In this document: positions 61,644 to 61,935 of the stretch, in pieces
Position numbering within the stretch: position 1 is the stretch's first letter
Layout: the number at the start of each line of letters is the position of its first letter
IMG/VR virus record: IMGVR_UViG_3300047469_000197
Span: 1 to 64,000 of that record
Reading direction: 5' to 3' (one strand)
Source: a virus
Length of the DNA stretch: 64,000 nucleotides
Translations under genes and position numbers: made by a program
Notes under the pieces: model-generated
What the model was told of the DNA's origin: nothing
The model's input: only the letters and a program-made list of their open reading frames with translations
Database searches by the model: none

Positions 61644-61696
61644 AAAAAAGCCCATCACAAAGATGGGCAAAGACTACACACAGCAATTTCGTTGTT
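61644..61696 (-). ncRNA. RprA 3'-fragment-like small RNA with terminator
   Basis: Minus strand AACAACGAAATTGCTGTGTGTAGTCTTTGCCCATCTTTGTGATGGGCTTTTTT, close to the enterobacterial RprA 3' half as I recall it. Confidence 0.75.
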
Positions 61697-61935
61697 ACCA
61701 GATCGCTACATCATAACGGAGAGAACACCGTGAAGCTTTGGGCAACCGCTTGGCTCGGTCGGTGCTCTCTCCTGTTGTGCCCCCGCCTTTTCGCCACGCA
61801 TCGGCGGGGTAATGCGCTTTCTCCAGCTCGCAGACTACCTGCGGCCTTATGGCTAGATTGCAGTGAGCAATAGCTCATTGCAGCCGTGTTCTTTCACACC
61901 GTCACGGGCTGGTTAAGTCTGCCGCTGACTGCCGT

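Follow-up and report, generated by a model that had tools for sequence, protein, structure and literature searches.

A conserved phage-plasmid locus carries a homolog of the processed 3' part of the host small RNA RprA

Introduction

A P1-like plasmid prophage carries, on its minus strand and behind a string of phage genes, a copy of the processed form of the host small RNA RprA. The copy is real, it is conserved among phages and it lies in a new replicon context, and a function for it is plausible. With moderate confidence we read the window as holding, in compact form, a conserved phage locus for non-coding RNA, with a 3' unit that copies nucleotides 60–105 of RprA (RprA60-105) for trans-regulation of host mRNAs. 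The window, that is the whole stretch of DNA that was analysed, comprises 64,000 nucleotides and is part of a complete IMG/VR virus record of 95,130 bp (IMGVR_UViG_3300047469_000197). A sequence-only reading of this window had proposed that the phage encodes a mimic of processed RprA, released from the 3' region of the tciAB genes. Here we describe the homology, anatomy, conservation and pairing capacity of the element.

Phage-encoded small RNAs are already known, among them DicF, StxS, HnrS and the anti-sRNAs. Full-text literature searches, both for phage RNAs resembling or homologous to RprA and for the seed string, turned up no account of such a copy in a phage, and the phage sRNA HnrS is unrelated to the element (PMC13502914). 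What is new, in that it is undescribed in the literature searched, is a core host sRNA copied by a phage in its active, processed form. This form, RprAproc, comprises the 3'-terminal 47 nt of RprA; it is present alongside the full-length RNA and has regulatory activity by itself (PMC9262595). RprA60-105 is sufficient for repression of csgD, whose site I pairs with RprA nt 60–97 (PMC3465796). The RprA of Erwinia amylovora is Hfq-dependent, Rcs-activated and conserved mainly at its 3' end, and its overexpression inhibits biofilm formation and triggers dispersal (PMC7814967).

Results

The virus record carries the hallmarks of a P1-type phage (tail sheath, baseplate, a Sit-like transglycosylase, a Dmt-like methyltransferase, a PacA/PacB-type terminase and a partition protein) and the replicon is a P1-like plasmid prophage. 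The best DNA matches for the rest of the window are Erwinia billingiae and Pantoea plasmids, so the host family is probably the Erwiniaceae. The features of the RNA locus and of the neighbouring genes are collected in Table 1; a tRNA gene search of the window found none. The true start of the tciB-like open reading frame is probably internal, and the inverted repeat in the spacer behind it may serve as an operator or form an RNA hairpin. Directly past the terminator there is a 69-aa open reading frame (61415–61624, minus strand) that matches nothing in Pfam or PHROG and has no evident Shine-Dalgarno sequence; it is probably not a gene. Outside the window and near the replicon, at 83274–83555 (plus strand) of the record, lies a gene for a ProQ/FinO-domain protein (PF04352, 63 bits, above cutoff), and a phage-borne RNA chaperone of this kind could matter for the non-coding RNAs of the phage-plasmid.

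Table 1. Coordinates of the RNA locus and of its neighbouring genes in the window.
Feature	Position	Strand	Basis
Predicted 44-nt processed sRNA, approximately RprA60-105 (seed, terminator and U6 tail)	61644..61687	-	Matches RprA nt 60-105 except terminator loop
Intrinsic terminator, 7-bp stem GCCCAUC/GAUGGGC, loop UUUGU, U6 tail	61644..61668	-	Terminator pattern scan
18-nt seed AUUGCUGUGUGUAGUCUU (DNA ATTGCTGTGTGTAGTCTT), equal to RprA nt 60-77	61670..61687	-	Identity 18/18
AACAACGAA, native RprA sequence immediately 5' of the processing site	61688..61696	-	Comparison with K-12 rprA
ATGTAGCGATCTGG, remnant of tRNA-like domain	61698..61711	-	Same-place sequence in relatives
Framed hairpin, CACAAC-AGG-(13-bp stem, 29-nt loop)-CC-GTTATG	61712..61779	-	Strict frame search
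7-bp GC hairpin CCCCGCC...GGCGGGG, directly 5' of the framed hairpin	61781..61809	-	Sequence and fold
11-bp imperfect inverted repeat CTGCAATGAGC / GCTCACTGCAA, spacer after tciB	61858..61883	n/a	Pattern scan
tciB-like gene (DUF3927)	61936..62211	-	Pfam PF13064 at 2.9e-11; phrog_1470
tciA-like gene (TerB family)	62099..62539	-	Pfam PF05099 at 2e-15; phrog_632 at 3e-63
p125, adjoins the RNA locus in Pantoea and Citrobacter plasmids	62892..63269	-	tblastn, 59% and 37% identity, and synteny
p245, upstream gene, syntenic in Pantoea and Citrobacter plasmids	63262..63999	-	tblastn, ~40% identity

The minus strand from 61696 to 61644 equals nt 51–105 of E. coli RprA, save for one extra A and a different terminator loop; by comparison with the annotated rprA of E. 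coli K-12, the extra A sits before ATTGCTG. The minus-strand sequence on which the sequence-only reading was built read back exactly as described, and the E. coli RprA 3' end that it had given agrees with the annotated K-12 gene. The number of exact 22-mer matches expected in 128 kb is, by arithmetic, about 7e-9, which places the match far beyond chance, and blastn with the element matched chromosomal rprA in 5424 of 5426 E. coli genomes. The parts of the terminator on the minus strand are GCCCATC (61668–61662), the loop TTTGT, GATGGGC (61656–61650) and T6 (61649–61644); a T-run follows the hairpin on this strand only, and the fold is worth −13.2 kcal/mol, compared with −12.8 kcal/mol for E. 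coli RprA. A search of 185,579 representative genomes of bacteria and archaea did not find the exact terminator variant. For the variant AACGAAATTGCTG the sole find was the chromosomal rprA of an Ewingella species, where the terminator is different.

Comparison with the Rfam RprA model, which had been put forward as a check, bore the proposal out in its E-values but not at the Rfam cutoff. At gathering thresholds Rfam reported nothing for the element. With permissive filters RF00034 aligned to 61749–61640 on the minus strand, giving an E-value of 1.8e-6 for 800 nt and of 5.1e-8 for the entire 95-kb record, yet its score of 56.5 bits is under the gathering threshold of 70. Chromosomal rprA genes score 61–115 bits with the same model, and an order-level genome search with it, using strict filters and a very broad GTDB order, returned 5 of 141 genomes. 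Matching letters in the alignment are confined to the 3' half, with almost none in the 5' half. The region 61830–61640 folds with a z of −4.3 relative to shuffles, and the flanks of the element are tciB and phage open reading frames, not the chromosomal ydiK locus. Judged by its sequence, the element is a true homolog of the 3' part of RprA.

Counted on the K-12 sequence, RprA nt 60 is the A at window position 61687. As the seed starts at this nucleotide and the element lacks the part that pairs with rpoS, what the window contains is the processed-form module alone. The earlier claim that the processed 3' form is active by itself is in agreement with the literature (PMC9262595, PMC3465796), and the element coincides with RprA60-105. 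The predicted 44-nt RNA (61687–61644) folds like RprA60-105 of E. coli, at −14.7 and −14.3 kcal/mol respectively. With E. coli csgD as a proxy target, the duplex of the seed with csgD site Ib is worth −24.2 kcal/mol, which was equalled by none of 1000 shuffles, and the processed form from the window pairs with E. coli csgD site I, again as a proxy, at −34.9 kcal/mol, compared with −37.0 kcal/mol for E. coli RprA. Repression of csgD, which the sequence-only reading had cited for RprA as a whole, is, according to published work, achieved by RprA60-105 on its own (PMC3465796), and by the E. coli proxy the seed keeps the full site I pairing. Curli may be absent from an Erwiniaceae host.

Pairing with rpoS was assessed by a site-restricted test; whole-molecule folding of RprA with the rpoS leader gave meaningless long-loop duplexes. 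With the E. coli antisense element as proxy, the region upstream of the seed pairs at −13.7 kcal/mol, and 61% of shuffles were as good, whereas E. coli RprA reaches −28.1 kcal/mol, as good as which were 0 of 1000 shuffles. The rpoS-activating part, which had been reported as not seen, is thus indeed missing. A k-mer scan of the 95-kb phage genome for complements of the seed gave matches at chance level only (best 11 nt, shuffles 10–11 nt), so that any target would lie in the host. The junction GAA/AUU (slash at the cut) presumably fits the RNase E motif RN/WUU, judged by inspection, and is a candidate site, while Hfq usually binds features of the kind seen in the U6 tail and in the U-rich stretch that precedes the hairpin. 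Processed RprA was reportedly found by Papenfort and colleagues in 2015 to pair with ricI, which is Salmonella-specific, whereas the host here is probably one of the Erwiniaceae.

Upstream of the seed lies a 13-bp stem that had been described as pairing fully on the minus strand only. This is correct, as GGAGAGAGCACCG (61772–61760) pairs with CGGTGTTCTCTCC (61730–61718) with one G-U pair, which turns into a C-A mismatch on the plus strand. The stem is the inner helix of a recurrent hairpin framed by CACAAC...GTTGTG. This frame is its own reverse complement and hence gives no indication of strand. A loose regular expression for the framed hairpin matched 68 of 82 control loci and was dropped as non-specific; the strict form was defined by an exact CACAAC, a GTTGTG with at most one mismatch and an inner helix whose folding energy is no weaker than −12 kcal/mol. 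Upstream of the seed, 34 of 113 loci have a strict framed hairpin, compared with 0 of 114 downstream of it and with 8 hairpins in 895 kb of control DNA, which corresponds to an enrichment upstream of seeds of about 50-fold. The whole window holds a single one on either strand, at 61712–61779. The inner stems vary by class yet stay paired, covarying (GCGAGAGCA/TGCTCTCAC, AAAGGGGC/GCCCCTTT and AAAGCGCACTCC/GGAGTGCGCTT, with AGAGAGCACCG/CGGTGTTCTCT in the window), and both arms of the window hairpin resemble the type A lambdoid hairpin. An Rfam search with the framed hairpin matched no family. Members of the hairpin family are also seen in loci L010, L018, L073, L086, L124, L401 and L402.

Between the hairpin and the seed the relatives have a tRNA-like domain, of which the window keeps the first 14 nt (61711–61698), followed by native RprA sequence. 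The place of the remnant is taken by ATGTAGCTCAGTCTGG...GGTTCAAATCC in the Pantoea plasmid and by GGTGTAGC... in the Citrobacter plasmids and in lambdoid leaders. The framed hairpin, together with the tRNA-like domain in the relatives, is probably a maturation or stability scaffold. In the Citrobacter phage-plasmids a bona fide tRNA-Met (CAT) opens the locus (L124:3630-3705 and L402:2101-2176), and after it come one or two framed hairpins, the tRNA-like domain and the RprA-type module.

The neighbouring genes provide a route to related loci that does not depend on the seed. A tblastn search of PLSDB with p125 returned exactly three plasmids, from Pantoea and Citrobacter (37–59% identity), and all three carry the module downstream of p125. 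In the Pantoea sp. CCBC3-3-1 and C. freundii plasmids with RprA-like matches, homologs of both p245 and p125 lie directly upstream of the module. The identical 18-nt seed is found at the syntenic site in four of four phage-plasmids, including the window, and the other non-coding DNA is unalignable. This synteny marks the module as a non-coding locus that related phage-plasmids have conserved. A related-locus search with p125 and a tblastn search of the phage collection with p125 found nothing. PLSDB "plasmid" matches from K. pneumoniae were left out as the genuine chromosomal ydiK-rprA-ppsA region; L400 (K. pneumoniae NZ_CP079608.1) and similar PLSDB records are either misassemblies or pieces of chromosome carried by plasmids.

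In the window three inserted genes, p78, tciA and tciB, separate p125 from the module. The 17-nt sequence AAACAGCCATAGACGGC (61947–61931, minus strand) spans the tciB stop codon, is identical to a stretch in the non-coding gap of the Pantoea plasmid (L401 near 3135–3155), and is probably the junction of the tciAB insertion. Because these genes were inserted upstream of the module, its position in a "tciAB 3' UTR" is secondary. We also considered that the module might be a private, lineage-specific insertion, since 82 P1-type relatives identified through TciA (87–91% identity) or through the downstream 178-aa protein are without the seed and show no DNA similarity to window 62000–61424, but the p125 synteny overturned this view. 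A pattern scan of minus strand 61300–62300 found no sigma-70-like sites, with a weak −10-like TATGAT at 61715–61710 that has no −35 partner. With no sigma-70-like promoter between tciB and the module, a longer transcript is its most likely origin. Of the proposed release from the tciAB 3' UTR, then, the release from a longer transcript is plausible, but tciAB is an upstream insertion and not the native mRNA.

Beyond the phage-plasmids, an exact 21-mer scan of IMG/VR returned at least 120 contigs with very different flanks. These loci were picked by the exact seed, so the invariance of the seed among them is circular, and we relied on measures free of this bias, namely position −1, nt 15–18 past an anchor on nt 1–14, and the p125-based synteny. 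Position −1, which was not selected by the search pattern, carries an A in all 30 upstream classes; beyond it, farther from the seed, conservation breaks down. Anchoring on seed nt 1–14 alone gave 47 independent viral context classes, in which nt 15–18 (TCTT) are 91–96% conserved while upstream positions reach at most 55%. The terminators that follow the seed in these 47 contexts are unrelated in sequence and length, some being of DicF type. Conservation of nt 15–18 in front of unrelated terminators indicates that the invariant unit is RprA nt 60–77, with no particular terminator. The same 18-nt seed is present in six of six chromosomal rprA genes sampled from diverse Enterobacterales. Several viral loci, among them L378, L303 and L312, join the RprA seed to a DicF-type terminator (GGCGG...CCGCC, then a T-run), a pattern that hints at the exchange of seeds on a shared sRNA chassis.

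Among lambdoid phages the module is found in immunity regions and in early leaders. For 68 of 120 loci among the matches listed, a cI-type repressor gene (HTH and S24 peptidase) precedes the seed on the same strand at a distance of about 0.5 kb. At such loci cro, cII and the replication genes are divergent and early genes follow the seed; the E. coli C11 prophage has the same arrangement after cI. In the strictly lytic N4-like Erwinia phage Ea9-2 (L125:2501-2547) the module begins right behind the stop codon of thyA (thymidylate synthase). An annotated "hypothetical protein" open reading frame of Ea9-2 starts at the 3' end of the module, and in phage Tellus the RprA seed and a terminator likewise stand directly after the stop codon of thymidylate synthase.

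Discussion

In the window, the RprA seed is followed directly by an intrinsic terminator with a U tract, belongs to a same-strand phage unit and has structured RNA ahead of it. We propose that minus-strand transcription would reach the module as the end of a p245-p125-p78-tciA-tciB unit and stop at the module's own terminator. RNase E would then cut at GAA/AUU, the same junction as in RprA, and free an RNA of about 44 nt, which would be bound by Hfq through its U-rich 3' end. The RprA seed of this RNA would pair with host mRNAs controlled by RprAproc, in curli-bearing hosts at a csgD-type site I, while in Erwiniaceae hosts the seed targets may be biofilm-matrix or dispersal functions. An RNA under phage control would deliver only the RprAproc branch of the regulon, because the locus probably has no Rcs-dependent promoter and lacks an rpoS-pairing region. 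In this way the phage can probably switch on a part of the host envelope-stress and biofilm programme without the host's own signal.

An alternative is that the module acts mainly in cis, as an operon-internal terminator or attenuator with read-through set by the framed hairpin or by Hfq, and that termination or processing accounts for the retention of the RprA-like sequence. In every context the module has same-strand genes on both sides, where a mid-string intrinsic terminator also fits a cis role; in lambdoid phages it sits between the early-left promoter region and the early genes, a structured RNA is always ahead of it, and the terminator is strong. Termination, however, needs no 18 invariant single-stranded bases equal to the seed of a host sRNA, the hairpins vary freely while the seed is invariant, and the phage genome has no complementary site above chance. 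We consider a mainly cis-acting role unlikely. It would in any case be compatible with an sRNA role, as StxS is reported to be an sRNA that arises as a termination by-product of a phage (PMC7547250).

It is rather less probable that the module is a functionless fossil, a piece of host rprA gained by illegitimate recombination with its decay still pending. The window copy is host-like in its native RprA flank AACAACGAA and its E. coli-type terminator stem, its tRNA-like domain has been deleted, and the 82 P1-type relatives found by way of TciA or the 178-aa protein do not have the seed. Set against this are the synteny in four of four phage-plasmids although p125 has diverged to 37–59% identity, the fact that the part retained is always the processed one only, and the exact terminator variant, which occurs in 0 of the 185,579 representative genomes. 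Given the deletion of the tRNA-like domain, the window copy itself could be decaying.

It is common for phages with integration sites in tRNA or sRNA genes to carry the 3' end of the gene that they target, and some of the seed matches lie near the ends of prophage contigs, so that the copy might be an attP, attL or attR core from phages that integrate at the 3' end of host rprA and restore the gene. This seems very improbable, since the replicon is a plasmid prophage whose only tyrosine recombinase is a Cre homolog at 37858–38400, 23 kb from the element, and since the DNA downstream of the seeds is that of phages and not the host ydiL/ppsA side. The att-site remnant was rejected on this distance together with the contexts of the seed, which for 68 of 120 loci among the matches listed is located behind cI, within the immunity region, and in a lytic N4-like phage behind thyA. 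That host rprA was mis-joined to phage DNA, through chimeric assembly or contamination from the host, has next to no likelihood. Some PLSDB "plasmid" records do hold the true chromosomal ydiK-rprA-ppsA region, but here the rprA 5' half and its flanking genes are absent, phage genes stand on both sides, and the same arrangement is present in three independent complete plasmids.

Our preferred reading thus remains a phage non-coding RNA that acts in trans on host mRNAs. A wider proposal, which we make tentatively and at somewhat less than even chance, is that at least three phage lifestyles (lambdoid temperate, P1-like plasmid prophage and lytic N4-like) keep the RprA seed as a portable cassette on unrelated terminators behind a dedicated maturation scaffold of framed hairpin and tRNA-like domain, that hijacking of the RprAproc branch within the Rcs regulon for envelope stress and biofilm is a general and hitherto unrecognised strategy of phages, and that the scaffold is a new class of sRNA-processing element. 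If the element is functional, a phage could trigger one branch of Rcs/RprA independently of envelope stress and without induction of RpoS; in E. coli-type hosts this branch would mean repression of curli/csgD, and in Erwinia the inhibition of biofilms and their dispersal. Carriage of the phage would then be tied to biofilm behaviour in Enterobacterales, including the plant-associated Erwiniaceae. The many independent phage lineages offer natural evidence for RprA nt 60–77 as the functional unit of RprAproc, and they bring to notice an unclassified RNA scaffold that accompanies the seed.

Relation to known systems

The closest known RNA is RprA itself, or more precisely RprAproc, with which the element shares the 18-nt seed, the E. 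coli terminator stem and U tail, the predicted fold, the sequence of the processing junction and the complementarity to csgD site I. Unlike RprA it is encoded on a phage-plasmid, and it is without the 5' stem-loops, the rpoS-pairing region, the ydiK-rprA locus and, by the sigma-70 scan, a recognisable promoter of its own. It further differs from RprA by one extra A before the junction and by a terminator loop of UUUGU where RprA has CUCCCAC. With this loop exchanged, loop-dependent targets such as fepA (PMC11979758) would not be shared.

The structured RNA ahead of the module recalls HK022 put and lambda nut, which are likewise structured early-leader RNAs ahead of terminators, but the framed hairpin shows no sequence or Rfam match. 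Among phage sRNAs, DicF is freed by RNase processing of a polycistronic prophage transcript and ends at an intrinsic terminator, as is predicted for the element, although the seed and targets of DicF are different and the window terminator is of RprA type rather than DicF type. StxS is an Hfq-associated phage sRNA derived from early termination of the PR' transcript of Stx phages (PMC7547250). The element resembles it as a phage-encoded sRNA and terminated product of a phage operon acting on host stress regulation, with Hfq association and expression predicted for the element. StxS resembles no host sRNA in sequence and activates rpoS, whereas the element copies a host seed and has no rpoS pairing.

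The 3'UTR-derived sRNAs CpxQ, SroC and NarS and the tRNA-trailer-derived 3'ETS-leuZ are each the 3' end of a longer transcript, with a common terminator and release by RNase E, features that are predicted for the element as well. The likeness to 3'ETS-leuZ extends to the relatives, where the module directly follows the tRNA-like domain. These RNAs are chromosomal and have seeds of their own, whereas the seed of the phage element duplicates that of another host sRNA.
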